DNA from: a virus
UHGV virus genome: UHGV-1530050
Strand: one strand, 5' to 3'
DNA: 30,949 nucleotides
Both the position numbers and the translations under genes were made by a program. The notes under the pieces were generated by a model. That model worked only from the letters and a program-made list of their open reading frames with translations, made no database searches and was not told where the DNA came from. Shown piece after piece: positions 5,090-30,949 of this stretch (position 1 is its first letter; every line of letters begins with the position of its first letter).

Positions 5090-5608
5090 TTACAGCCCGA
5101 TTGCGCGGCGGTGCTGTTCCAGACGGTCGACGCCGTTCACCTTCTCGACCATGTTGACGGTGTCGATTTCGATGACGTCGCTACCATCAATCGTCAGGCG
5201 GTAATAGGTGCAAACGGTCGACAGTTTGGTCGAGGTGTTTTCACCCTGCTTATTTTCGCCGCCGTCGATTTCTTTATGACGGCCACGCATGACCACCTCG
5301 ACCGCGATGATTTCGCCGGTGTCGTCGCGCTGGTAGGATCCAGCAAAACGCAGCGGCACAGCGTCAGCACCCGGCGCGGCGTACTGCGCCCACAGAGCCA
5401 CATCAGGCAGGCCACCGACAGACCACTCGACGGTTAACGCATCATCGTCGAGACCGAGGTCAATCGCCGCCGCACCATTCATACCACCGCCGCGATAGTT
5501 TTCGAGCTTGCGGGTCAGCTTCGGCAGCGTCACGGATTCAACAACGCCCATGTAGCTCAGACCGTCGTTGAACATATTCAGATATTTGAGTTTGCGGGGT
5601 AGTGCCAT
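5090..5608 (-). CDS. FII: Tail tube protein FII
   Basis: 172 aa; immediately downstream of the sheath gene; P2 FII-like. Confidence 0.9.
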   Translation of the reverse strand: MALPRKLKYLNMFNDGLSYMGVVESVTLPKLTRKLENYRGGGMNGAAAIDLGLDDDALTVEWSVGGLPDVALWAQYAAPGADAVPLRFAGSYQRDDTGEIIAVEVVMRGRHKEIDGGENKQGENTSTKLSTVCTYYRLTIDGSDVIEIDTVNMVEKVNGVDRLEQHRRAIGL

Positions 5609-5623
5609 GTTATTTCAGGCTCC

Positions 5624-6811
5624 TTAGCTGTTGACCGATTCGGCCAGATTCACCAGATATTTATCGGTGATACGCTGGCGCAGGGTCAGGCTTTCCAGTG
5701 GTGGAACCGGCGTATAGTCGTAGTCGATATACAGTTTCCCGGCCTTGAGGGTTTCCTTATCGTTCGATTCCTCGTCGAACCAGCATTCACCGTCCACGAT
5801 GTAGCCATTTGATTTCAGCTCGCGGAATTTGGCATTAATGCCGTCGACAATGTCACGGATAAGCGATGCGGTGATGGGCTTATCGACCGCCCACATGTGC
5901 GCTTCGGCCATCGTGTCGGCCAGCACCTGCGCGGTGCGGGTGTAGTTCTCAAACAGGAAAAGCGGGTCATCCGAGCAGGTGCGGTTCCCCCAAAAACGGA
6001 AACCATCTTTACGCACCAGCGTCGTTACCCCGGCCTCGTTGAGCAGGTCGGCATCGGTGCCGGATGCCTGCAAATCCCAAAAGACTGACGCACTGATGCC
6101 GGTGACACCCTGCACGCCAACGTTAGACAGGGTTTTGTGCCAGCCGACGGTTTGGTCGATGTAGGCGCGCAGGCCGAGTGCGCGCGCGGTGGCGTAGGCC
6201 GTTGCGGTGGCGTTCGCGGTGGTGTCCCATGCAAGGAAATCAGGCCAGATGACCATCAGCTCGCGCTGACTGAAATTCTCGCGATAGGCCATCGCTTCGG
6301 AAATGGTCTTACAGCCCCATGCGCTGACATAGCCAAAGGCGCGCAGGCTAATACAGACCGACGCGAGCGCGGTTGCGACCTCCTGCGTATCGAGACCCGG
6401 CACGCCGAGAATGCGCGGCTTAACGCCGGTGACCGCTTCGGCAGTCAACAGCGCCTTGATACCGGTGTATTTACCGTTCTCATCCGTGCCGCCAATGATA
6501 TTAGAAATGGTCTGCGCCTGAGCTGCATCCGGGTCATCGTCGACCCCTTCGGCTACGCGCACGACAACGGTGACGGGTTTTGACTGGTCGGCGATAGCCT
6601 GCAGGGATGCAGCCAGCGTGCCTTTTTTACCGGCTTTCGCAATGGCGCTCTGCACATTGGTAATCAGTACCGGCTCATTGAGGGGGAATGTTTCGGCATC
6701 CGCATCGCTGGCCGTGCAGACCATGCCGACGATTGCGGTTGCTACAGTGGAAATGACGCGGGTGCCGTCGTTAATCTCAAGCACCTGTACGCCGTGGTGA
6801 AAATCACTCAT
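5624..6811 (-). CDS. FI: Contractile tail sheath protein FI
   Basis: 395 aa; P2 FI-like sequence and position. Confidence 0.9.
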   Translation of the reverse strand: MSDFHHGVQVLEINDGTRVISTVATAIVGMVCTASDADAETFPLNEPVLITNVQSAIAKAGKKGTLAASLQAIADQSKPVTVVVRVAEGVDDDPDAAQAQTISNIIGGTDENGKYTGIKALLTAEAVTGVKPRILGVPGLDTQEVATALASVCISLRAFGYVSAWGCKTISEAMAYRENFSQRELMVIWPDFLAWDTTANATATAYATARALGLRAYIDQTVGWHKTLSNVGVQGVTGISASVFWDLQASGTDADLLNEAGVTTLVRKDGFRFWGNRTCSDDPLFLFENYTRTAQVLADTMAEAHMWAVDKPITASLIRDIVDGINAKFRELKSNGYIVDGECWFDEESNDKETLKAGKLYIDYDYTPVPPLESLTLRQRITDKYLVNLAESVNS

Positions 6812-11062: not shown

Positions 11063-11926
11063 ATGGAAGAATCTAAAAGAATACGCCAATTAAAAGAAAA
11101 CCTCATAAAGGAACTACCTTTCTTTCCAAATGAAAAATCAATACGCACTGAACTAGAAAATCAAAGTTTAAATGGGGTTTTAATCGCTTACCTCCACTGG
11201 AAAACAAGAATTGTGCCGACCCGCAGAAGGAGAGTTCATATATATCCAGAGGTAACGAGCGATAAAAGATGGAAAGAACTAAAACTTGGTATTCATGGGT
11301 TACTGGATAAGGTCAGAAAAGGTGAAGACTTATACCCTCATCTTTCATTGCGCGCACATAAGTATGGCTACACTCCTGTTGAAAGAATTCGTAATGGAGA
11401 TGCTGATTCATGGGAAGACAAAGATCAGTTATTAAATACGAAAGGTTTTCATCATTTTCATTTGAGCATGAATATTCAAAGTACAGGCTTGGCCGAAAGG
11501 ACAAATAATGTTCTTTTTGCCTTCGTTTCTCGCGACCAGTTTCGTGCTGTGGGGATATTTGATCATAGTGTATTTGATAAACCCGATAGTTTAAATGGCA
11601 TGACTGAGGAACGTGAAAGAATGTGGACCCTGCATGAAAAATACATCACATTCGGAATGAAAGCTGGCACAGTGTATATAAACAATCTGATAACAGCATC
11701 CGGGCATCCTGTAAATCTTATCATGCTCGCCGATCGTTATGCTGCAATCATCCGAGAATATGACCAGAAGGCGGAAGACAGAATTTTTGTAAATGAGCTT
11801 TATGCTCAAAGCCCACTTCCCTCTCCAGAAAGGTTTAAATTTGAGTGGCGCATAGAGGGTTTGGATCTTGTTCTTTTTGATAAAAAAAACAGAGTGGCCT
11901 TTAACGTCTACAAAGCTCACATTTAA
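11063..11926 (+). CDS. Hypothetical protein; AT-rich cargo gene in the S-V (P2 orf30) slot, antisense to the late genes
   Basis: 287 aa ORF with AGGA RBS 7 nt upstream; markedly lower GC than the flanking S and V genes; no motif I recognise. Confidence 0.6.
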   Translation: MEESKRIRQLKENLIKELPFFPNEKSIRTELENQSLNGVLIAYLHWKTRIVPTRRRRVHIYPEVTSDKRWKELKLGIHGLLDKVRKGEDLYPHLSLRAHKYGYTPVERIRNGDADSWEDKDQLLNTKGFHHFHLSMNIQSTGLAERTNNVLFAFVSRDQFRAVGIFDHSVFDKPDSLNGMTEERERMWTLHEKYITFGMKAGTVYINNLITASGHPVNLIMLADRYAAIIREYDQKAEDRIFVNELYAQSPLPSPERFKFEWRIEGLDLVLFDKKNRVAFNVYKAHI

Positions 11927-17921: not shown

Positions 17922-19691
17922 ATGACCATTTCCACCGATACAACCTTGTTGCATGACCCGCGACGACAGGCATCGCTGCTTTACTGGCAGGGCTTTTCCG
18001 TGCCACAGATTGCCGAAATGCTGCAGGTCAAGCGCCCGACCGTGCAGAGCTGGAAGCAGCGCGACGGCTGGGACGGCATCGCACCGATTTCCCGCGTTGA
18101 AAGCAGCCTTGAGGCGCGCCTGATTCAGCTCATCGCGAAACCACAGAAGACGGGCGGTGATTTCAAAGAGATTGACCTGCTCGGGCGGCAGATTGAGCGG
18201 CTGGCGCGCGTCAACCGCTACAGCCAGACCGGCAACGAAGCCGACCTTAACCCCAACGTCGCCAACCGCAACAAAGGGGAGCGCAAAAAGCCGAAAAAGA
18301 ATTTTTTCAGCGACGAGGCTATCGAGAAACTGGAGGAATTATTTTTCGACCAGTCTTTCGAGTACCAGTTGCAGTGGTACCGCGCAGGACTGGAGCACCG
18401 TATTCGTGACATTCTCAAATCCCGCCAGATTGGTGCGACGTTCTATTTCTCCCGCGAGGCGCTGCTGCGCGTGCTCAAAACAGGCCATAACCAGATATTT
18501 TTATCAGCCAGTAAAACGCAGGCTTACGTGTTTCGCGAATACATCATCCAGTTTGCACGACTGGTCGACGTTGACTTGACCGGCGACCCGATTGTCATCG
18601 GTAACAACGGCGCAAAACTGATTTTTCTCGGTACCAATTCCAACACCGCGCAGAGCCATAACGGCGACCTGTATGTCGATGAAATATTCTGGATCCCGAA
18701 CTTTCAGAAACTGCGCAAAGTCGCCTCGGGCATGGCTTCGCAGAAGCACCTGCGCTCGACCTACTTTTCGACACCCTCAACACTGGCGCACGGGGCTTAC
18801 CCCTTCTGGTCTGGTGAGCTGTTCAACAAGGGGCGCGCCAGTGCCGCTGACCGCATCGAAATCGACATCAGTCACCGCGCGCTCGCCGGTGGTCAGCTCT
18901 GCGACGATGGCCAGTGGCGGCAGATTGTCACCATTGAGGATGCCCTTGCCGGGGGCTGCACCCTGTTCGACCTCGACCAGCTCAAACGCGAAAACAGTGA
19001 TGAGGATTTTAAGAACCTGTTTATGTGCGAGTTTGTCGACGATAAAGCGTCGGTATTCCCGTTCGAGGAGCTGCAGCGCTGCATGGTCGACGTGATGGAA
19101 GAATGGGAGGACTTTGCCCCGTTCGCCGACCATCCGTTCGGCTCGCGCCCGGTCTGGATTGGCTACGACCCGTCACACACCGGCGACAGCGCCGGGTGCG
19201 TTGTGCTCGCGCCGCCGGTGGTCTCGGGTGGCAAGTTCCGCATGCTTGAGCGCCACCAGTGGAAAGGAATGGATTTTGCCGCTCAGGCCGAGGGCATCCG
19301 CAAGCTGACCGAGAAATACAACGTCGAATACATCGGCATTGACGCGACCGGCCTCGGTCTCGGCGTATTCCAGTTGGTGCGCTCATTCTACCCGGCGGCA
19401 CGCGGCATCCGTTACACACCTGAAATGAAAACCGCGATGGTACTCAAGGCGAAAGACACCATTCGCCGCGGCTGTCTGGAGTACGACGCCGGGGCGACCG
19501 ACGTCACGCAGTCGTTTATGTCCATCCGCAAAACCATGACCAGCAGCGGGCGCAGCGCCACTTACGAGGCCAGCCGCACCGAGGAAGCCAGTCACGCTGA
19601 TATCGCATGGGCGACCATGCACGCCCTGTTAAACGAACCGCTTTCTGCCGGTAGCGGCATGCAGCCTAAATCTATTCTGGAGTTCAACTAA
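17922..19691 (+). CDS. P: Terminase ATPase (large) subunit P
   Basis: 589 aa; P2 gpP-like; TAATG overlap with Q. Confidence 0.9.
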   Translation: MTISTDTTLLHDPRRQASLLYWQGFSVPQIAEMLQVKRPTVQSWKQRDGWDGIAPISRVESSLEARLIQLIAKPQKTGGDFKEIDLLGRQIERLARVNRYSQTGNEADLNPNVANRNKGERKKPKKNFFSDEAIEKLEELFFDQSFEYQLQWYRAGLEHRIRDILKSRQIGATFYFSREALLRVLKTGHNQIFLSASKTQAYVFREYIIQFARLVDVDLTGDPIVIGNNGAKLIFLGTNSNTAQSHNGDLYVDEIFWIPNFQKLRKVASGMASQKHLRSTYFSTPSTLAHGAYPFWSGELFNKGRASAADRIEIDISHRALAGGQLCDDGQWRQIVTIEDALAGGCTLFDLDQLKRENSDEDFKNLFMCEFVDDKASVFPFEELQRCMVDVMEEWEDFAPFADHPFGSRPVWIGYDPSHTGDSAGCVVLAPPVVSGGKFRMLERHQWKGMDFAAQAEGIRKLTEKYNVEYIGIDATGLGLGVFQLVRSFYPAARGIRYTPEMKTAMVLKAKDTIRRGCLEYDAGATDVTQSFMSIRKTMTSSGRSATYEASRTEEASHADIAWATMHALLNEPLSAGSGMQPKSILEFN

Positions 19692-20737
19692 TGGGTAAGC
19701 AAAAATCCCGCAAAGCCGCTGCGCAGAAGGCCAGCAAGCCACAACAACTGACCGCCAGCGCACCGCCAAAAACAACAGCTTTTACCTTCGGCGAGCCGGT
19801 GCCAGTGCTCGATAAGCGCGATATTCTGGATTACGTCGAGTGCATCAGTAACGGCAAATGGTACGAGCCGCCGGTCAGCTTCTCCGGGCTGGCAAAGAGC
19901 CTGCGCTCTGCAGTGCATCACAGCTCACCGATTTACGTTAAACGCAACGTGCTCGCTAGCACCTACATTCCGCACCCGCTGCTGTCCCGTCAGGATTTCA
20001 GCCGCTTTGCGCTCGACTATCTGGTATTTGGCAACGCCTTTCTTGAGCAGCGCCACAGCGTCACCGGCCAGTTAATCAAACTGCTGGCCTCGCCAGCCAA
20101 ATACACCCGACGCGGAGTCGACGATTCGATTTTCTGGTTTGTGGAAAACTTCACCCAGCCGCACGAGTTCGCGCCTGATACCGTGTTTCACCTGCTGGAG
20201 CCCGACATTAATCAGGAGATTTACGGCCTGCCCGAATATCTCAGCGCGCTAAATTCCGCCTGGCTGAATGAATCCGCGACGCTGTTCCGCCGCAAGTATT
20301 ATCAGAACGGCGCGCACGCGGGTTACATCATGTATGTGACTGACCCGGCGCAGAGCGCGACCGACGTCGAATCGCTGCGCGAGGCGATGCGCAACTCAAA
20401 AGGGCTCGGCAACTTTAAGAACCTGTTTTTCTACGCTCCCGGCGGAAAACCGGACGGCATCAAAATCGTGCCACTGAGCGAGGTCGCCACAAAGGATGAC
20501 TTTTTCAACATCAAGAAGGCCAGTGCCGCCGATCTGATGGACGCGCACCGCGTACCGTTCCAGCTCATGGGCGGCAAGCCCGAGAATATCGGTTCACTCG
20601 GTGATGTTGAGAAGGTGGCAAAGGTATTTGTGCGCAACGAGCTGTCGCCGCTACAGGACAGGTTCAGGGAGGTAAATGACTGGCTCGGCATGGAGGTCAT
20701 CAGATTCAAAGAGTACACCCTCGACAACCCAGAATAA
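19691..20737 (+). CDS. Q: Portal (capsid vertex) protein Q
   Basis: 348 aa; P2 gpQ-like sequence and position. Confidence 0.9.
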   Translation: MGKQKSRKAAAQKASKPQQLTASAPPKTTAFTFGEPVPVLDKRDILDYVECISNGKWYEPPVSFSGLAKSLRSAVHHSSPIYVKRNVLASTYIPHPLLSRQDFSRFALDYLVFGNAFLEQRHSVTGQLIKLLASPAKYTRRGVDDSIFWFVENFTQPHEFAPDTVFHLLEPDINQEIYGLPEYLSALNSAWLNESATLFRRKYYQNGAHAGYIMYVTDPAQSATDVESLREAMRNSKGLGNFKNLFFYAPGGKPDGIKIVPLSEVATKDDFFNIKKASAADLMDAHRVPFQLMGGKPENIGSLGDVEKVAKVFVRNELSPLQDRFREVNDWLGMEVIRFKEYTLDNPE

Positions 20738-20814: not shown

Positions 20815-21819
20815 ATGGGCGCGGAGATTAATATTTTGGAAACTGATTTTAAAATAACCCTCGAAGGTTTCGCTACTGAGCAAGAAGCAAATAATATCGG
20901 TAATTTCACACTAGAAGCTATCCGAGCTTTAACAAAAAATCTCAATCTTGATATCTCCAAATTAAAATGCGTGATTGTTTCCTATAACTTCAGTGAAGCT
21001 CTTCAAAAGGTAACATCCTCTTACCAACACAAATCCCCTAGTTCATTTACCAATAGCAAACAGGGCGCAGCCGTCGGGCAGTTAGTAACAAAAATTGGCA
21101 ATGATGGGCTATGTGAAGAATATACCCTTGTGCTATCGATTGATTTTTTTGTTGAGCTTTTCAATGATGCTGGCTTCTTAAAACTGAAAGAAGAAGGATA
21201 CCTCGCAGTCATCCATCGCATTCACCATGAATTAGTGCACGTACATGAAAAAAACTTACTAACATGCTTAGCCCAAAACTTTACAGTCAACGAGTATGGT
21301 AGCGCGCTTCTTATCTCAGCCACGCGTGCATGGTCTGAATATCTCGCTAATTACATGTCTTCGGGGTCTGCCCCTCAAGAAACTATCGATTTATTTTTAG
21401 AGAATCTTGACACTGTTGTAAATGAAGTATCTGACGAAATTGAAAAACTCATCTGGGGTTATAAGTACGGTAATATTTCTCTGAATGACATGTATCTCGA
21501 AGTAAAAAAACGTATCAGGCTAATCATCAACTCTTATGCTTATGCGATGGGTTATGTCCATTCTCTAAACATCAATATTAAAGAATACGATCCAAAGCTA
21601 TCCCTTACACTATCCAACTCAAAGATAAGATATCAATTATCAGAATTAGGCATTGCTTTTCAGAATCTTTATGGGAAGTTTAATGACCAGCACATTACAG
21701 GTTTTGGTGATTTTCGGGAGATAACAATAATCATTGATGAAATATTCAAGCAGTTTGGGCTTGTTTTAGAGTGTCCCGATTGGTCTGGCGACGGTGAACT
21801 CTACATACATGTAAATTAG
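20815..21819 (+). CDS. Hypothetical protein with HExxH (HELVH) motif; AT-rich cargo gene between portal Q and cos
   Basis: 334 aa ORF with much lower GC than the backbone; ...VIHRIHHELVHVHEKN... contains a candidate zinc-metallopeptidase HExxH motif; RBS weak. Confidence 0.55.
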   Translation: MGAEINILETDFKITLEGFATEQEANNIGNFTLEAIRALTKNLNLDISKLKCVIVSYNFSEALQKVTSSYQHKSPSSFTNSKQGAAVGQLVTKIGNDGLCEEYTLVLSIDFFVELFNDAGFLKLKEEGYLAVIHRIHHELVHVHEKNLLTCLAQNFTVNEYGSALLISATRAWSEYLANYMSSGSAPQETIDLFLENLDTVVNEVSDEIEKLIWGYKYGNISLNDMYLEVKKRIRLIINSYAYAMGYVHSLNINIKEYDPKLSLTLSNSKIRYQLSELGIAFQNLYGKFNDQHITGFGDFREITIIIDEIFKQFGLVLECPDWSGDGELYIHVN

Positions 21820-22038
21820 TTTAATCATAGTAGAAACATAATTAGCAGTTTGAATCCTGCCACTCCTGTAAAGCCGCTGCTCCTGGTGGCTTTTCCATGC
21901 ACACCACCATCACGCATCAGATGTGTCTCACGCGCACGAACACACCTGACCACCAACGAACCAGCAGCGACCACGACAGCGCCATCACGATGCGCTCAGA
22001 AGATAATTTTTATTATTACGCATCACTGCTGGCGCGCA

Positions 22039-22057
22039 ATGCTTTCCCCGCCACGCC
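22039..22057 (-). other. cos site (19-nt cohesive end, 186-type)
   Basis: The reverse complement of 22039..22057 reads GGCGTGGCGGGGAAAGCAT, matching the 19-nt cohesive end of phage 186 as I recall it (P2 differs at 2 positions); lies between Q and A as expected. Confidence 0.6.
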
Positions 22058-22150
22058 TGCCCGCTTTATGGGGCGGTTTTAATGCAGTTGCATGACCACT
22101 CTGGATCCCCGCCAGCTCTTGCGGCGCACGTACAAAACGGGTAACCCCGG

Positions 22151-22185
22151 CGCATGCAGAACCATGCACCTGTTGCATGCACAGC
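22151..22185. repeat. Three direct copies of CATGCA(C/G) spaced 11-13 bp apart
   Basis: cgCATGCAgaacCATGCAcctgttgCATGCAcag; about 95-130 bp from cos and 110-140 bp upstream of the 22294 gene. Confidence 0.4.
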
Positions 22186-22293
22186 TTATTTATTGATAAA
22201 TCACCTTAAATTTACAAAAATTACGGACATTGGTTCTTTCCAAACATGATAGCCTCTCGATAATTATCGAGCCTATTTTGAACGGAGAAAGAT

Positions 22294-23235
22294 ATGCAAG
22301 GTGAAGTTGACGAACAGCAACCCAATGAGATTATGTCGGAGTTTGGATACTATCCAGTAGAAGTTAACATTGAGACTGAACAATTTTCTTTGCTTACTTT
22401 ACCTGGTCTCAATGAGAAAGTGGAGCGTGTTAACAATGATAAAAACGTTGTGAAAGGTTGGATATACCCTGGAAACCAAGATGTATATAACCTTAATGGT
22501 GGTATATCCACAATGCCTTATAGTCACCGAGTATTCAGTATGCCCAAAACGCACACACTAAAATTAAAAAATACATCCTCGTTAGAAACTCTCAACTTTA
22601 TTGTGTGGTGCCTTTCTTTTTTCAAGGGAATAAGATTGACAACCACTGACGCTGGTTTTTTAGATGCAACCACTATCAAGCCCACTAAGTTAACCGACTT
22701 TATTCTCGTTGGATGCTCTGAAAAAGAAGTCATAGAACTGGCTCTTAATTATATAAATGGCAAACATAAGGATGCGCACTCCCCCAAAAGAATTGCGGCA
22801 GTGGTGCATGCACTATTCTTATCTCAAAACCCACAATACCTTTCTTTTGAAAAATTCCAGTACCTTTACATGGCACTTGATGGGTGCTTTGCTTTGTCGT
22901 GGGCTGAGCATGACAAGGCTCCTGATAAAAAACCGCCAAATCATTACAAGCGATTAAAGTGGATGTGCAAAATTTATGGGTTATCAATCCCCACATGGGT
23001 GTCAGGTAAAAAAAACATTTCTGGCATCCGCAATGATAATTTTCATGAGGCTATTTTTTTTGGTCAACCGCTTGGTTTCTCAAGTGTTAATAACAGTCAA
23101 TATGGTAACGATATATTGCTGCAAATGCAGGCACTGGTATGTCGCCTATTAGCGGCAATACTGTCGGTTAATGATTGCAGTTATCTCAAATCTTCGGTCA
23201 ACTCACGAGATTACCATTCATTAAAAATAAATTAA
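22294..23235 (+). CDS. Hypothetical protein; AT-rich cargo gene in the cos-proximal Q/A slot (P2 tin/old position)
   Basis: 313 aa ORF with a strong GGAG RBS 8 nt upstream; low GC; convergent with replication gene A as P2 old/tin are. Confidence 0.6.
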   Translation: MQGEVDEQQPNEIMSEFGYYPVEVNIETEQFSLLTLPGLNEKVERVNNDKNVVKGWIYPGNQDVYNLNGGISTMPYSHRVFSMPKTHTLKLKNTSSLETLNFIVWCLSFFKGIRLTTTDAGFLDATTIKPTKLTDFILVGCSEKEVIELALNYINGKHKDAHSPKRIAAVVHALFLSQNPQYLSFEKFQYLYMALDGCFALSWAEHDKAPDKKPPNHYKRLKWMCKIYGLSIPTWVSGKKNISGIRNDNFHEAIFFGQPLGFSSVNNSQYGNDILLQMQALVCRLLAAILSVNDCSYLKSSVNSRDYHSLKIN

Positions 23236-23268
23236 TGCTAACGCCTCGCGGTGCTCGTTGTTCAACCC

Positions 23269-23303
23269 CCGCCAGTACTGAAAGCGAGTTTCAGAACCGG
23301 CGG
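23269..23303 (+). terminator. Candidate terminator hairpin downstream of the 22294 gene
   Basis: Nested inverted repeats ccgcc ... ctgaaa-gcgag-tttcag ... ggcgg, 35 nt after the stop, followed by cgtttgct. Confidence 0.3.
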
Positions 23304-23309
23304 CGTTTG

Positions 23310-23519
23310 CTATCGTCGACGTGGTGGTGGTGCGTATTGTTTCGACCTGCTGATGCTATCCAGCTTGCCGTAATTATCCCTGACTATTTCGGCACACCCG
23401 ACCAGCTCTGCGGGTGTCAAATTCTCATTGACCATTATCTGCTGCAAACGATGAACGATGGCCATCAGTTTGATGCTTTTAGTTTTGTGCTGCGGTATTT
23501 CACCTGGTAGTCGATGCAT
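23310..23519 (-). CDS. Small hypothetical ORF (69 aa)
   Basis: ORF only; uncertain start; located downstream of the dinI-like gene. Confidence 0.3.
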   Translation of the reverse strand: MHRLPGEIPQHKTKSIKLMAIVHRLQQIMVNENLTPAELVGCAEIVRDNYGKLDSISRSKQYAPPPRRR

Positions 23520-27498: not shown

Positions 27499-28008
27499 TC
27501 AAATCAGACCAAACGATGCGCCAATACCGCTCATGGTATCGACCACGCTCGACATAGCTGGATTAGTCTGCAGACGTGCATGCAGCGCCAGAGCCGACAA
27601 TGACAACATGCGAATGCCGGAGTTAACGCTTTCAATCATGTTGTGCTTACGGGCAATGGTCAGACGTTCATCAGATACCGCGCCGCTCGCCAGTTCGCCG
27701 AGTTCACGCATTGCGCGCATGACATAAGACTGCAATTTGTCTTTAGCCAACTCATTAACCGGCACGCATGGTAGGCAGTGAATCTGCGCTAAAAAACCAT
27801 CAATGAGGGTTGAGTCTTCGGTCAGGTCAGTCAGCAGCCACAATTCAGGCGGCGTGAACTGGTGAGGCTGTTCCGGATTGAGCTTGTTACGTAACGTTTG
27901 AACGTTCATACCTGCACGCTCGGCCAGCTTCGCCATGTTGTGACGCTGTGCGAAAATGCGGCATGCTTCGTCATAGTGGGGATGTTTGGAAACCTGAAAA
28001 TCAAACAT
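27499..28008 (-). CDS. Early regulator with HTH motif, 186 CII-like or P2 B-like (second gene of the early operon)
   Basis: 169 aa from MFDFQ...; probable HTH (MAKLAERAGMNVQTLRNKL); size and position match 186 cII. Family assignment is from memory and uncertain. Confidence 0.6.
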   Translation of the reverse strand: MFDFQVSKHPHYDEACRIFAQRHNMAKLAERAGMNVQTLRNKLNPEQPHQFTPPELWLLTDLTEDSTLIDGFLAQIHCLPCVPVNELAKDKLQSYVMRAMRELGELASGAVSDERLTIARKHNMIESVNSGIRMLSLSALALHARLQTNPAMSSVVDTMSGIGASFGLI

Positions 28009-28040
28009 GGTTAAATTCCCTCTAACTTGCATAATCAAAT

Positions 28041-28412
28041 TCAGTTAAGAGCGGTGCGCTGGTCGATGTAGCGACAATCAATCGCTTGTTGAGTCAACTT
28101 ATCGCGCCATGCTTTTACATTTACGAGGGTTCGGCTTCGTTTAGCAGCTTCCTCTTTGTTGGAAAAGTCTTTGGTCGGAGCTTTGAGAAGGACTCCCTCA
28201 TCGAGCCATTGCCAGACCAGACGCTCGCTAACACCGCGAGTAGCGGCGAAGTCTTTCACAGTCATCGTGTCTGACATAGCGGAGCGAATCATTGTCTGTA
28301 GAGCTGGCAGCATGGCGGTAACGATGGCATCAAACTGTGTTGGATCTAGCAGCACAGTTTGATTTTGTGAGTTTTGCGAGTCGTGCGTCGAGATTGATTT
28401 TGCATCTGACAT
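28041..28412 (-). CDS. Apl/Cox-like HTH excisionase/early repressor (first gene of the lytic operon)
   Basis: 123 aa with AGGAGA RBS; HTH-like segment (MTVKDFAATRGVSERLVWQWL); divergent from cI. Longer than P2 Cox or 186 Apl; an internal start at 28313 is possible but lacks an RBS. Confidence 0.6.
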   Translation of the reverse strand: MSDAKSISTHDSQNSQNQTVLLDPTQFDAIVTAMLPALQTMIRSAMSDTMTVKDFAATRGVSERLVWQWLDEGVLLKAPTKDFSNKEEAAKRSRTLVNVKAWRDKLTQQAIDCRYIDQRTALN

Positions 28413-28475
28413 ATCGCATTATCTCCTGTTGTTTGAAATGTAGTGCAGTGGTGTGCATCTTGGTCGATGAATGCC

Positions 28476-28504
28476 ACTATAGATCGTAAAAAATTTTCTG
28501 TAAA
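28476..28504 (-). promoter_or_regulatory. Candidate sigma70 early lytic promoter (pR/Pe-like)
   Basis: On the - strand: -35 TTTACA (28504..28499), 17-nt spacer, -10 TATAGT (28481..28476), about 65 nt upstream of the Apl-like start. Confidence 0.5.
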
Positions 28505-28533
28505 CACCCATAAAATTATCTGTAGGGGTTTTT

Positions 28534-29394
28534 ATGAGTTCTGAGCTTGATGTTCAGTGGCGTGTTAGTGCAACGAACGGCGTATTGGAACGCTTAATGT
28601 CAGCCTATGGGGTCAAGATGCAAAAGGATTTGGCTGACCTGCTAGGTATCGCTAAACACAGCGTTAGCGGCTGGGTTCAGCGTGATGCAATACCTGGCAA
28701 TGTCATAGTTAGGTGTTGTCTTGACACGGGAGCTGATATCAATTGGCTTGTAAATGGAGAGCTTGCAAATGCAAATCACGAGCGAGTCAGTTGCAAGTTA
28801 AAAGGCAAAGAGCTTTATGACGAGATTATGACGAATGGTGGTAAAACCGTTTTGCGTAGGATTCTTGATGCGTATGGCTTTACCATGCAAAAGGAGCTCG
28901 GTGATTTGCTCGGCATTTCCTCTGGCACAATTAGCACATGGGTAAGGCGAGATTTTTTCCCTGGTGATGTTGTTGTTACATGCGCTCTTGATACCGATAC
29001 GTCACTGGAATGGTTAGCAACAGGCAAGGGGCAAATGCGAGCTAACAGGGAAGATGTCACATCTGGTTTTTCTATTAAAAAATCTCGTCTTGAATCTGGT
29101 GAGCTTAAGGATGCAGGAACGTGGCATCCTGACCCCTCAATGATTCCTTCTAACTCAGGGGAATTGATTTTTGTTGACGGTGTAGCTGCCTCTTGGCTTG
29201 TCGACTGTTCTGCTTCGAATATAAGTAATGGTCGCTGGTTAATTGATATCGACGGCGCTCTTGATGTTTTTGATGTAATTCGTTTACCTGGTGGAAAAGT
29301 CAGGTTGTCAAATAAGTCTGCTGAGTTTGAATGCAACATTACCGACATTACGCCTGCCGGGGTTGTAGTTTTCACATTGGAAAAACACGTATAA
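28534..29394 (+). CDS. cI: CI-type immunity repressor with tandem-duplicated N-terminal HTH domains
   Basis: 286 aa; residues ~14-75 and ~103-165 are clear paralogous copies (LERLMSAYGVKMQKDLADLLGIAKHSVSGWVQRD... vs LRRILDAYGFTMQKELGDLLGISSGTISTWVRRD...), resembling the 186 CI-type HTH domain; AGGGG RBS. Confidence 0.8.
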   Translation: MSSELDVQWRVSATNGVLERLMSAYGVKMQKDLADLLGIAKHSVSGWVQRDAIPGNVIVRCCLDTGADINWLVNGELANANHERVSCKLKGKELYDEIMTNGGKTVLRRILDAYGFTMQKELGDLLGISSGTISTWVRRDFFPGDVVVTCALDTDTSLEWLATGKGQMRANREDVTSGFSIKKSRLESGELKDAGTWHPDPSMIPSNSGELIFVDGVAASWLVDCSASNISNGRWLIDIDGALDVFDVIRLPGGKVRLSNKSAEFECNITDITPAGVVVFTLEKHV

Positions 29395-29402
29395 GGGAAA
29401 TT

Positions 29403-29741
29403 ATGAAACGTAAACTCTTTTTAGCTATGCTTCTTACCTTTTCTTTTGGCTCCTTAGCCGCTGAAAAAAAACAGGATTTAGATGGCGCTAAGTTTGGTGA
29501 GGATTGGCCGTTAACTTTTGAAAAAGCTACGGTGTCTTGCGTTAACGGTAAGTATGCCTTTGTATACGACAAAGCAACTGATGACCGATACCCATTAAAT
29601 GGTTTTGCTATTGATGGAGTAAAGTCTGGAAAGCTTGAGGGGAGCAATATTGATGCTGTTTGGAAAGACAGTCCAGAGTATGCAGGTGTAAAAATTCCTT
29701 TGGATCCTGTAATGGATGCCGCAACAGCACTTTGCGAATAA
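29403..29741 (+). CDS. Secreted small protein, YebY/DUF2511-like (possible lysogenic conversion gene)
   Basis: 112 aa from MKRKLFLAMLLTFSFGSLAAE (signal peptide); W..F..E....C ... YPLN ... SGK ... C-terminal Cys pattern resembles E. coli YebY as I recall it; AAGGGA RBS. Confidence 0.65.
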   Translation: MKRKLFLAMLLTFSFGSLAAEKKQDLDGAKFGEDWPLTFEKATVSCVNGKYAFVYDKATDDRYPLNGFAIDGVKSGKLEGSNIDAVWKDSPEYAGVKIPLDPVMDAATALCE

Positions 29742-29763
29742 TTAGAGTTGCCTCGGTGACATT

Positions 29764-30813
29764 ATGACTGTAAGTAAGCAAAAAAATGGCAAATGGTTAT
29801 GCGAGCTCTATCCAAATGGTCGAGAAGGGCGACGTATACGTCGGCAATTCAATACCAAAGGTGAGGCTGAGGCATTCGAAGCATTTACCAAAAGCGAGAG
29901 TGAAGATAAGCCGTGGCTTGGCAAGAAAGAAGACCGCCGACGCTTAAGCGAGATTATTCAGCTTTGGCACAATTTGCACGGTCAAGCGTTAGTCGCCAGT
30001 AAGTCGAGGTTAGCAAAGCTTCAAATCGTATGTAATGGGCTTGGTGACCCGATTGCATCTCGCCTTACCGCGAAAGACTGGGCTCATTATCGTGACCGTC
30101 GATTACGTGGTGAAATAGACAACGGTTATCATAAAGACCCCTCGAAATGGATCGCCAAACCTATAACCGTCAATCGCGAACAGCAATACCTAGAAGCAGT
30201 GTTTAATGAGCTCCGCCGGTTAGGGGAGTGGAGCCTACCCAATCCACTTGATGGGATTCGAGTATTCAAAGAAGCTGAGAAAGAAATGTCCTGGCTAACT
30301 TTGTCTCAGCTCCCGGAGCTGTTTCGAGCCTGCGAGCAATACGGCAAAGAAGACCTCACCATGATTGTTAAGGTGTGCCTTGCAACCGGCGCTCGATGGG
30401 GGGAGGCGGAGAGATTGACCCGCCCTCAACTTTCTCCATATAAACTGACGTTCACCAAAACCAAAGGTAAGAAGAATCGCACAGTTCCTATTCCTAAATG
30501 GCTGTACGACGAGTTGTCCGAACGTCAGGGCAGAATGTTTAAACCCTGCTATCAGGAGTTTAAAAAGATGCTCAAACTAACGAATATTGAATTGACGGAA
30601 GGGCAGAAGACGCACGTTTTGCGTCATACTTTTGGTGCGCATTTTATGATGAACGGCGGGAATATACTGGTACTGCAGAAAATTCTCGGGCATGCCAATA
30701 TTCGAGAAACAATGAAGTATGCACACTTTGCTCCTGACCACCTTGAACAAGCTGTAACCCTTAATCCGTTATCGCTGTATGTTGGCGACAATATGGCGGC
30801 AGAGGTTGCATAA
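29764..30813 (+). CDS. int: Tyrosine integrase (P2/186 Int family)
   Basis: 349 aa; C-terminal catalytic-domain residues (R...HVLRHTF...KYAHF Tyr); last gene before the att region. Confidence 0.9.
   Translation: MTVSKQKNGKWLCELYPNGREGRRIRRQFNTKGEAEAFEAFTKSESEDKPWLGKKEDRRRLSEIIQLWHNLHGQALVASKSRLAKLQIVCNGLGDPIASRLTAKDWAHYRDRRLRGEIDNGYHKDPSKWIAKPITVNREQQYLEAVFNELRRLGEWSLPNPLDGIRVFKEAEKEMSWLTLSQLPELFRACEQYGKEDLTMIVKVCLATGARWGEAERLTRPQLSPYKLTFTKTKGKKNRTVPIPKWLYDELSERQGRMFKPCYQEFKKMLKLTNIELTEGQKTHVLRHTFGAHFMMNGGNILVLQKILGHANIRETMKYAHFAPDHLEQAVTLNPLSLYVGDNMAAEVA
30783..30806. repeat. Two copies of the TGGCG(G/A)CA motif in the int 3' end; candidate att core/arm sites
   Basis: tggcgacaata (30783-30793) and tggcggcagaggt (30794-30806); caaWWtggcggcagagRttg matches 84..103 at 17/20. 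Confidence 0.4.
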
Positions 30814-30949
30814 CACTGCAATTCACTGCATTAAAAATTACTTTAACTAGTTGTTTTTTATGGTAAGTATTTGTTTATTGTGGTCTGTTAATAGGAGCGT
30901 CTTAACTAAGATTTCGCTTAAGCGACATCCTGTTAAGAAGGGCTGGCCA

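Follow-up and report, generated by a model that had tools for sequence, protein, structure and literature searches.

Why does a temperate phage of the P2 family carry a gene for a small, predicted periplasmic protein between its repressor and its integrase? The question is raised by UHGV virus genome UHGV-1530050, a stretch of 30,949 nucleotides (the window) that amounts in essence to one complete prophage of the P2 family. The prophage is of the PSP3/186 type (genus Eganvirus) and encodes CI, CII, Fil and an Apl analogue. Between its immunity repressor gene cI and its integrase gene int lies a gene of the DUF2511/YebY family, which varies strongly between prophages with nearly identical integrases. 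A periplasmic role in superinfection exclusion or in defence appears to be the most likely function of this gene, at a probability of about 0.4 on our analysis. The pattern of variability is the reason why a role in genetic conflict is favoured over a housekeeping role.

Both the gene and its location have been annotated before. It corresponds to orf28/gp28 of phage PSP3 (NP_958085.1; RefSeq name 'DUF2511 domain-containing protein'), in a record whose submitter noted a resemblance to a hypothetical protein of E. coli. In phage Midge it is annotated as 'putative periplasmic protein'. The window protein is 96% identical to the proteins of PSP3 and SEN1, 99% to that of vB_EcoM-613R3 and 70-88% to those of SW9/SI22, Midge and RCIP0057. 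PSP3 gp28 and these copies share the placement cI - orf28 - int, and the window protein is another allele with no real difference. None of the records of PSP3, SEN1, SW9/SI22, Midge, RCIP0057 and vB_EcoM-613R3 states a function. The 2021 paper on YebY (PMC8689200, section 5) had already mentioned homologues with a phage CI repressor on one side and a recombinase on the other. The elements added here are the cassette-like hypervariability, a wider link to repressor genes of the P2 family and the parallel with Glo of a Vibrio phage.

The DUF2511 protein and its place in the probable lysogenic operon

The features of the gene and of its immediate surroundings are as follows.

29403..29741, plus strand: DUF2511/YebY-family gene, orthologue of PSP3 orf28/gp28; ATG start, 112 codons and stop
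29403..29462, plus strand: predicted Sec-type (signal peptidase I) signal peptide, residues 1-19/20, MKRK / LFLAMLLTFSFGS / LAA; rule-based, with the homologue pattern
29463..29738, plus strand: predicted mature periplasmic domain, about 92 residues, acidic, with Trp35, Cys46, Y63-P-L-N66 and Cys111; based on alignments
28534..29394, plus strand: cI immunity repressor gene, 286 residues, opening the lysogenic operon; Pfam matches to PF16452 and, in two stretches, to PF07022; 98% identical to PSP3 CI
29393..29398, plus strand: Shine-Dalgarno-like AAGGGA overlapping the cI stop codon, 4 nt 5' of the ATG; read from the sequence
29750..29758, plus strand: junction motif GCCTCGGTG, situated after the DUF2511 stop and before the int start, kept downstream of all allele types
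29764..30813, plus strand: tyrosine integrase gene, 349 residues, last gene of the operon; Pfam Int_N and Phage_integrase

An earlier note on this DNA, made from its letters alone, had proposed a 112-residue protein of the DUF2511/YebY family with a signal peptide at 29403-29741, and had named a Pfam search and a comparison with the host yebY as checks. Both were run. The Pfam search matched PF10709 (DUF2511) at E 2.1e-17 and 63.7 bits, with a gathering cutoff of 21, over residues 29-111 of the protein and positions 5-87 of the 87 in the profile. The host comparison by BLASTP gave 33% identity to E. coli YebY across 83 residues; the identity to YebY is approximately 30-33%. E. coli YebY was also retrieved by sequence search of the PDB (7N0J, E 3.9e-7), with MlbQ (2MVO) as a weak second match. 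Together with the open reading frame (ORF) itself and the structural match to YebY described below, these results confirm the proposed family. PHROG 2950, which carries the label 'unknown function', was matched full length (E 4e-52). NCBIfam held no model matching the protein, and the viral structure library BFVD gave no significant match to its structural model. The reading frame is kept in 87 related loci with a ratio of nonsynonymous to synonymous substitution rates (dN/dS) of 0.08-0.36; 29403..29741 is therefore not a chance ORF. Two other readings were rejected. An upstream ATG would give a 136-residue protein (29331..29741), but this start is missing in most homologous loci, all of which keep the 112-residue start, and a minus-strand ORF of 91 residues (29372..29647) found no support.

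The signal peptide was assessed by rule, on charge, hydrophobicity, cleavage motif and lipobox. The n-region MKRK has a charge of +3 and is followed by the 13-residue hydrophobic core LFLAMLLTFSFGS (mean Kyte-Doolittle value 1.9), with an A-x-A-type cleavage motif at SLA/A or LAA/E. By the same rules the window protein has no lipobox and no further hydrophobic segment. A charged n-region with a hydrophobic core is retained in 52 of 53 distinct homologues, so the signal peptide claimed in the earlier note is borne out both by the features of the window protein and by the common design of its relatives. The sequence of the signal peptide varies freely among homologues, and the mature N-terminus A-E-K is almost invariant. 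The mature protein would have a mass of about 10 kDa, an isoelectric point of 4.5 and two cysteines, Cys46 and Cys111. In an alignment of 121 family members, W35 and C46 are invariant and C111 is present in at least 90%. Trp35 aligns to Trp37 of YebY, and Cys46 and Cys111 align to its disulfide; judged by this alignment, the Cys46-Cys111 pair is the counterpart of Cys48-Cys113 in YebY.

An AlphaFold model built from the 121-sequence alignment reached a predicted local distance difference test score (pLDDT) of 90.4, with approximately 97 over residues 21-112 and low values over residues 1-20; it replaced an earlier model from 16 close sequences (pLDDT 69.8). Superposition on YebY 7N0J with Foldseek gave a template modelling (TM) score of 0.90-0.92 and a root-mean-square deviation of 1.2-1.4 Å. 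The model contains the four-stranded antiparallel sheet packed by helices that characterizes the family, and MlbQ was the sole other PDB fold that it matched. E. coli YebY is periplasmic by experiment and disulfide-bonded (PMC8689200). The window gene is thus predicted, from sequence features and the model, to encode a small exported protein of the YebY/MlbQ (DUF2511) fold with a Sec signal peptide and without a lipid anchor.

The gene starts 8 nt after the end of cI and ends 22 nt before int, and all three genes are on the plus strand, in agreement with the position and orientation given in the earlier note. A consensus scan between cI and int revealed neither a terminator nor a promoter. The earlier note had also remarked that P2 lacks a gene between C and int. 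This holds, as no gene is annotated in the 115-bp gap of P2, but the comparison was made with the wrong relative: the window phage is of the PSP3/186 type rather than the P2 type, and its CI, CII, Fil and Apl analogue make 186 the proper comparator. According to the annotation of 186, the promoters pL and pE drive a single lysogenic operon, cI-int-orf69, which ends at a terminator and in which cI and int abut. In BTP5, a 186-like prophage of Salmonella, transcription of the repressor gene and of the integrase gene took place under all conditions (PMC7067206). Given the tight gaps, the lack of a consensus terminator or promoter, the operon of 186 and the transcription of BTP5, it is a well-grounded inference that the DUF2511 gene is co-transcribed with cI in the lysogen.

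Variability of the gene between near-identical prophages

The DUF2511 gene was compared across the 87 loci. Every ORF recovered from them was full length (110-120 residues) with the signal peptide kept, and the distances of 8-9 nt to cI and 22-24 nt to int were preserved with few exceptions. Within this constant frame, the identity of the DUF2511 proteins dropped to 46-50% between prophages whose integrases were 98-100% identical. In the 66 loci with integrases at least 90% identical to that of the window, the alleles formed about 13 clusters for cI and about 9 for DUF2511 (at 90%), and these occurred in many combinations. The prophage at locus L083 provides an example. Its proteins shared 100% (Int), 99% (Apl), 99% (CII), 78% (CI) and 48% (DUF2511) identity with those of the window. 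At the nucleotide level the identity was 95-100% in the flanks, 38-66% in the 5' half of cI, 81-90% in the 3' half of cI, 57-65% in the DUF2511 gene and 98-100% in int. Because the better conserved 3' half of cI lies in between, the variability of the DUF2511 gene is not mere hitch-hiking with the cI specificity region. The DUF2511 gene is a second variable cassette, apart from that region.

The boundaries of the cassette are marked in the sequence. The junction TAAGG(G/A)A...ATG at its upstream end is kept across the allele types, and at its downstream end the nucleotide identity steps from approximately 60% to 98% at the 29750-29758 motif. GCCTCGGTG is possibly a boundary for cassette exchange, a part of the ribosome-binding region of int, or both.

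In E. coli the mature protein exists in three co-circulating types (50-73% identical), all at one attachment site: A, the type of the window, B (for example at L093/L003) and C (at L083/L095). Type B is identical between E. coli and Salmonella, and type C alters near-invariant residues of the family (W87L, N66S). The dN/dS values of 0.02-0.06 for int and 0.04-0.17 for cI, set beside those of the DUF2511 gene, indicate that the protein is functional and that its evolution is faster than that of its neighbours.

The gene could also be a near-neutral passenger, its diversity consisting of old haplotypes held by balancing selection on the immunity region. The DUF2511 gene does adjoin cI, which is itself highly polymorphic, and a representative of an E. 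coli cluster (P0001, 93% identical) has a tryptophan in place of the C-terminal cysteine (…ALWE). Changing the equivalent cysteine of YebY to alanine or serine abolished YebY expression (PMC8689200). As P0001 has lost this residue, some circulating DUF2511 alleles may be defective. Yet a passenger would hardly be expected to remain full length with its signal peptide in all 87 loci under the purifying dN/dS found here, to differ far more than the cI 3' half that separates it from the specificity region, or to reassort with the cI alleles. We consider this explanation very unlikely.

The variability bears equally on an explanation taken from the closest characterized relative. YebY is encoded by the third gene of the copper-uptake operon yobA-yebZ-yebY (AZY), and shares with the phage protein the Pfam family, the fold, a Sec signal peptide, the Cys-Cys pair and the conserved tryptophan. 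It modulates copper import by YebZ/YobA and binds copper with low affinity when reduced (PMC11923076). A YebY-like phage protein might bind or compete at the YobA/YebZ importer and thereby tune copper uptake in the lysogen, and by way of this the activity of NDH-2 and the antibiotic tolerance that depends on mar; this would be true lysogenic conversion. YebY lowers the YebZ-dependent accumulation of copper and mar activation requires the AZY proteins (PMC11923076), NDH-2 activity depends on YebY and YobA (PMC8689200), and with the AZY operon in every E. coli host the partner would always be there. The phage protein is nonetheless distant from YebY, as the identity given above shows. The two genes also differ in their conservation and surroundings: the host copy, a conserved core gene in a copC-copD context, is universal (at least 90% nucleotide identity in 5426 of 5426 E. 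coli genomes), whereas the phage copy sits in a lysogeny operon and is hypervariable, with changes such as W87L and N66S that would not be expected in a protein docking on a conserved transporter. At none of the loci examined were copper (cop) genes found inside or near the phage module; the host AZY operon lies elsewhere in the genome. A role in copper or envelope physiology is therefore judged rather unlikely.

The second characterized member of the family is MlbQ (2MVO/6QFP) from the self-resistance system of Microbispora for the lantibiotic NAI-107. It is extracytoplasmic as well, has the same fold and disulfide position and is approximately 23-26% identical to the window protein. MlbQ would protect its producer at the cell surface by binding the lantibiotic. 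By analogy, the phage protein could confer immunity to a peptide toxin by sequestering a bacteriocin, a microcin, a tailocin component or another antimicrobial peptide, and its allelic diversity could follow the diversity of the toxins. Apart from YebY, MlbQ is the only characterized family member; it is described as a putative protein of lantibiotic self-resistance in the producer strain (PMC8689200). It is, however, a lipoprotein with a long linker, encoded in a Gram-positive lantibiotic-resistance operon with an ABC transporter, whereas the phage protein has no lipobox, no ABC transporter or bacteriocin genes lie near its gene, and the gene is strictly linked to phage repressor genes instead of toxin loci. 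Immunity of this kind is accordingly regarded as quite unlikely.

At some loci the slot holds further genes. At L023 (approximately 5562-6000) and L047, an additional ORF of 134 residues with its own signal peptide (MKRSIFALVLLTSFAVHA/QP...) separates cI from the DUF2511 gene. This ORF has the same TAAGGGAA-ATG junction at its start and the AGCCTCGGT motif at its end; the GCCTCGGTG motif likewise ends the extra ORF cassette in L023. Neither Pfam nor PADLOC gave a match to this ORF. At L062-L065, an ORF of 166 residues for a cytoplasmic protein with bPH_3/GRAM and SHOCT domains lies between the DUF2511 gene and int, and the same ORF occurs at L015/L016 (5475-5975); PADLOC gave no match to it.

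Distribution of the gene and parallels with exclusion proteins

Ten phage records (seven phages) carry the DUF2511 gene, and these are exactly the ten with an integrase at least 90% identical to that of the window. All inspected E. coli prophages of the PSP3 type contain the gene as well. An integrase of the window type together with the 3' half of cI was found in 81 of 5426 complete E. coli genomes. The DUF2511 gene was detected by blastn in 45 of these 81, and the inspected cases in which it seemed to be missing do carry it, in a version too diverged for blastn. The earlier note had described the gene as cargo. This understates its standing, as it is fixed in the PSP3-type lysogeny module while being hypervariable in sequence. 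The module belongs to a widespread group of prophages in Escherichia, Salmonella, Klebsiella, Enterobacter and Pantoea. Among further collections, IMG/VR contributed 64 contigs with the gene, most of them P2-like in size. Contigs of species-representative genomes yielded two loci only; such genomes seldom carry a PSP3-type prophage. True plasmids contained no copy, the only hits being chromosomes mislabelled as plasmids or host yebY.

PSP3-type prophages adjoin yfiB, with the host flank yfiB-dgcN-yfiR in both E. coli and Salmonella. A 186-type prophage at the same site (L094, E. coli RM14516, 2917-5456) has a cI gene of the single helix-turn-helix (HTH) kind (192 residues) that is directly followed by int. 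The DUF2511 gene is hence tied to the PSP3-type module and not to the attachment site. Capture of the host yebY by aberrant excision was considered and rejected, because the gene lies internal to int and not beyond the attachment site, and because its identity to the host gene product is as low as about 33%.

A profile search of 1.84 billion cluster representatives retrieved 780 family members at E <= 0.001. The genomic context was examined for the nine best-scoring groups outside the immediate clade, which stem from Pantoea, Yersinia, Winslowiella, Edwardsiella, Gibbsiella and from three metagenomic groups. The DUF2511 gene lay immediately downstream of a repressor gene, in a P2-like phage or prophage, in eight of them; in the ninth it was located at a contig end beside P2-like tail genes, with its upstream neighbour outside the contig. 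The repressors upstream of the distant DUF2511 genes were of four kinds: double-HTH CI, single-HTH CI, an HTH_3 protein of 149 residues and a protein of 118 residues. Some of the repressor-linked DUF2511 proteins were 31-37% identical to the window protein and hence no nearer to it than host YebY. The phage-borne proteins did not form one resolved clade in a neighbour-joining tree of 112 family members, for which reason no single origin is claimed for these distant members.

In Winslowiella toletana (L015/L016, 1-5339), a degraded prophage remnant comprises a double-HTH cI and a DUF2511 gene without an adjacent int. It lies approximately 3.5 kb from the host copC-copD-yebY genes, which places two DUF2511 paralogues within 4 kb; this was taken as a coincidence.

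The constant position behind the repressor gene might indicate a role in the phage's own cycle, such as conditioning of the envelope when lysogeny is established, sensing of envelope signals for induction, or sparing progeny from injection into sibling lysogens. The gene is fixed in its lineage and not sporadic, it always directly follows the repressor gene, whichever type of repressor this is, and the establishment promoter annotated in 186 would transcribe it too. Against this stand 186 and the 186-type prophage at yfiB, which manage without the gene, and the lack of an evident route from a soluble periplasmic protein to the cytoplasmic switch. Hypervariability would moreover be unusual for a housekeeping function of a phage. 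Such a role seems improbable.

For the exclusion or defence role, the nearest precedent by position is Glo of the Vibrio cholerae phage K139, another member of the Peduoviridae. Its lysogenic operon reads cI-orf2-glo-int from PL, and the GenBank annotation of Glo is 'periplasmic protein; involved in phage exclusion'. PMC3952083 likewise cites Glo as a periplasmic phage-exclusion protein. Similar to the DUF2511 protein, Glo is a small protein with a signal peptide, cysteines near both ends and a gene in the cI-int slot. Since no homology was detected, the parallel is one of position and compartment only.

Comparable placements are known from other lysogeny modules. The lactococcal exclusion protein Sie2009 is encoded between repressor and integrase. 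Ltp of the Streptococcus thermophilus phage TP-J34 is an exported exclusion protein from the lysogeny module, expressed by the prophage, that blocks the injection of DNA, and small sequence differences in Ltp-type proteins are stated to shift the range of phages that are excluded (PMC3952083). Proteins of the Ltp/Sie2009 type are Gram-positive lipoproteins or membrane proteins of an unrelated fold, but they are exported from the lysogeny module, as is predicted for the DUF2511 protein. The latter resembles the class of exclusion proteins in its placement in the lysogenic operon on the same strand, observed in the 87 loci, and by prediction in its export.

The interval between cI and int of K139-like Vibrio phages is a described hotspot for defence systems (PMC9122126), and of the defence systems detected in prophages of the P2-like kind, 8% lie in the int-primase interval (PMC13586616). 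These hotspots contain many unrelated cytoplasmic systems (restriction-modification, Septu, PARIS), whereas the slot studied here contains one exported family that varies by allele. Like the hotspots, it gains extra ORFs at times.

Periplasmic exclusion by the DUF2511 protein could proceed as follows. The protein would be made together with CI in every lysogen and while lysogeny is established; it would be exported and oxidized, and would accumulate as a soluble, acidic periplasmic protein of approximately 10 kDa. There it would play no structural or regulatory part for the phage but would act as a binding protein that protects the lysogen. Superinfecting phages would be stopped after adsorption, as their ejection machinery or DNA crosses the periplasm, and the divergent alleles, swapped as cassettes among near-identical prophages, would represent different target specificities. 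A protective action outside the cytoplasm is also what MlbQ, a protein of the same fold, would exert against a lantibiotic. The conversion or exclusion-like role suggested in the earlier note is thus plausible, and it draws support from the hypervariable alleles and from the position of Glo. A further step, which we put forward tentatively and consider doubtful, is that the DUF2511 proteins borne by phages form a new family of superinfection-exclusion proteins, soluble in the periplasm and encoded behind the repressors of many P2-family prophages, in which each allele recognizes a different phage component exposed to the periplasm, for instance a tape-measure or tail-tip protein.

Several observations weigh against an exclusion or defence role. 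The overall dN/dS of the DUF2511 gene is below 1, and old allelic lineages under balancing selection on the adjacent immunity region could add to its variability. The characterized relatives act otherwise, YebY in the modulation of copper import and MlbQ in putative lantibiotic self-resistance. No family among the defence models of PADLOC-DB 2.0 matched the window protein at E <= 0.1, and PADLOC gave no match for Glo. In the comparison with Glo, hhalign returned a probability of 4% with only the signal peptide aligned, and Glo has no Pfam match to DUF2511. The consensus scan did not locate the lysogenic promoter. Finally, the literature search for DUF2511 found no paper that treats it as a phage protein or gives a phage copy a function, and no experiment on any phage-borne DUF2511 protein.

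Should the DUF2511 protein prove to exclude phages, enterobacteria would possess a soluble exclusion factor of the periplasm, which is a rare kind, with relevance to host range in phage therapy. If the reading as a new family of exclusion proteins is right, the YebY/MlbQ fold would be a general periplasmic 'sequestering' module, which would provide a clue to the ligand of chromosomal YebY. If the DUF2511 protein acts instead on copper import and mar, the prophage would carry a modifier of antibiotic tolerance. With exclusion as with copper, the DUF2511 fold would gain a first function linked to phages. The protein is small and easily cloned, and with at least three very different natural alleles in near-isogenic backgrounds it offers a concrete, testable lead.

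The switch region and other candidate cargo

Three further features lie upstream of the lysogenic operon.

28413..28533, no strand assigned: switch region between the divergent apl-like gene and cI, with a pR-like promoter on the minus strand at 28504..28476 (consensus scan); by analogy with the face-to-face pR/pL of 186
28041..28412, minus strand: Apl/Cox analogue, 123 residues; full-length match to PHROG 3554 and a weak Cox-like match, no Pfam domain
27499..28038, minus strand: CII; Pfam Phage_CP76

The Apl/Cox analogue and CII make up the early lytic genes (27499..28412, minus strand), which face the lysogenic operon. The PSP3 version of Apl/Cox has been termed a 'singleton' among P2-like Cox/Apl proteins (PMC3448106). 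The window CI contains two tandem Phage_CI_repr HTH domains (approximately residues 14-77 and 106-169) followed by Phage_CI_C, in contrast to the CI of 186 (192 residues) with its single HTH domain. Between related prophages, no part of the region varies more than the 5' half of cI. As a whole, the region 28400-30949 is 99.1% identical to Escherichia phage vB_EcoM-613R3 and 89% identical to Salmonella phage PSP3.

Other positions may also hold cargo. At L094, a hypothetical gene of 309 residues lies between int and the host flank and represents another cargo position. In the window, three plus-strand ORFs (334, 313 and 111 residues) at 20815-23510 directly follow the portal gene (19691..20737), at the position of the old/tin hotspot of P2. 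They had no Pfam or PADLOC match, and are possibly an undescribed defence system. A plus-strand ORF of 287 residues at 11063-11926 lies on the strand opposite to the surrounding tail genes. It had no Pfam match; residues 23-168 gave a partial PADLOC match to the single-gene system PD-T4-7 (E 4.8e-9), which suggests that this ORF is probably anti-phage cargo in the tail-region (Z/fun-type) hotspot of P2.

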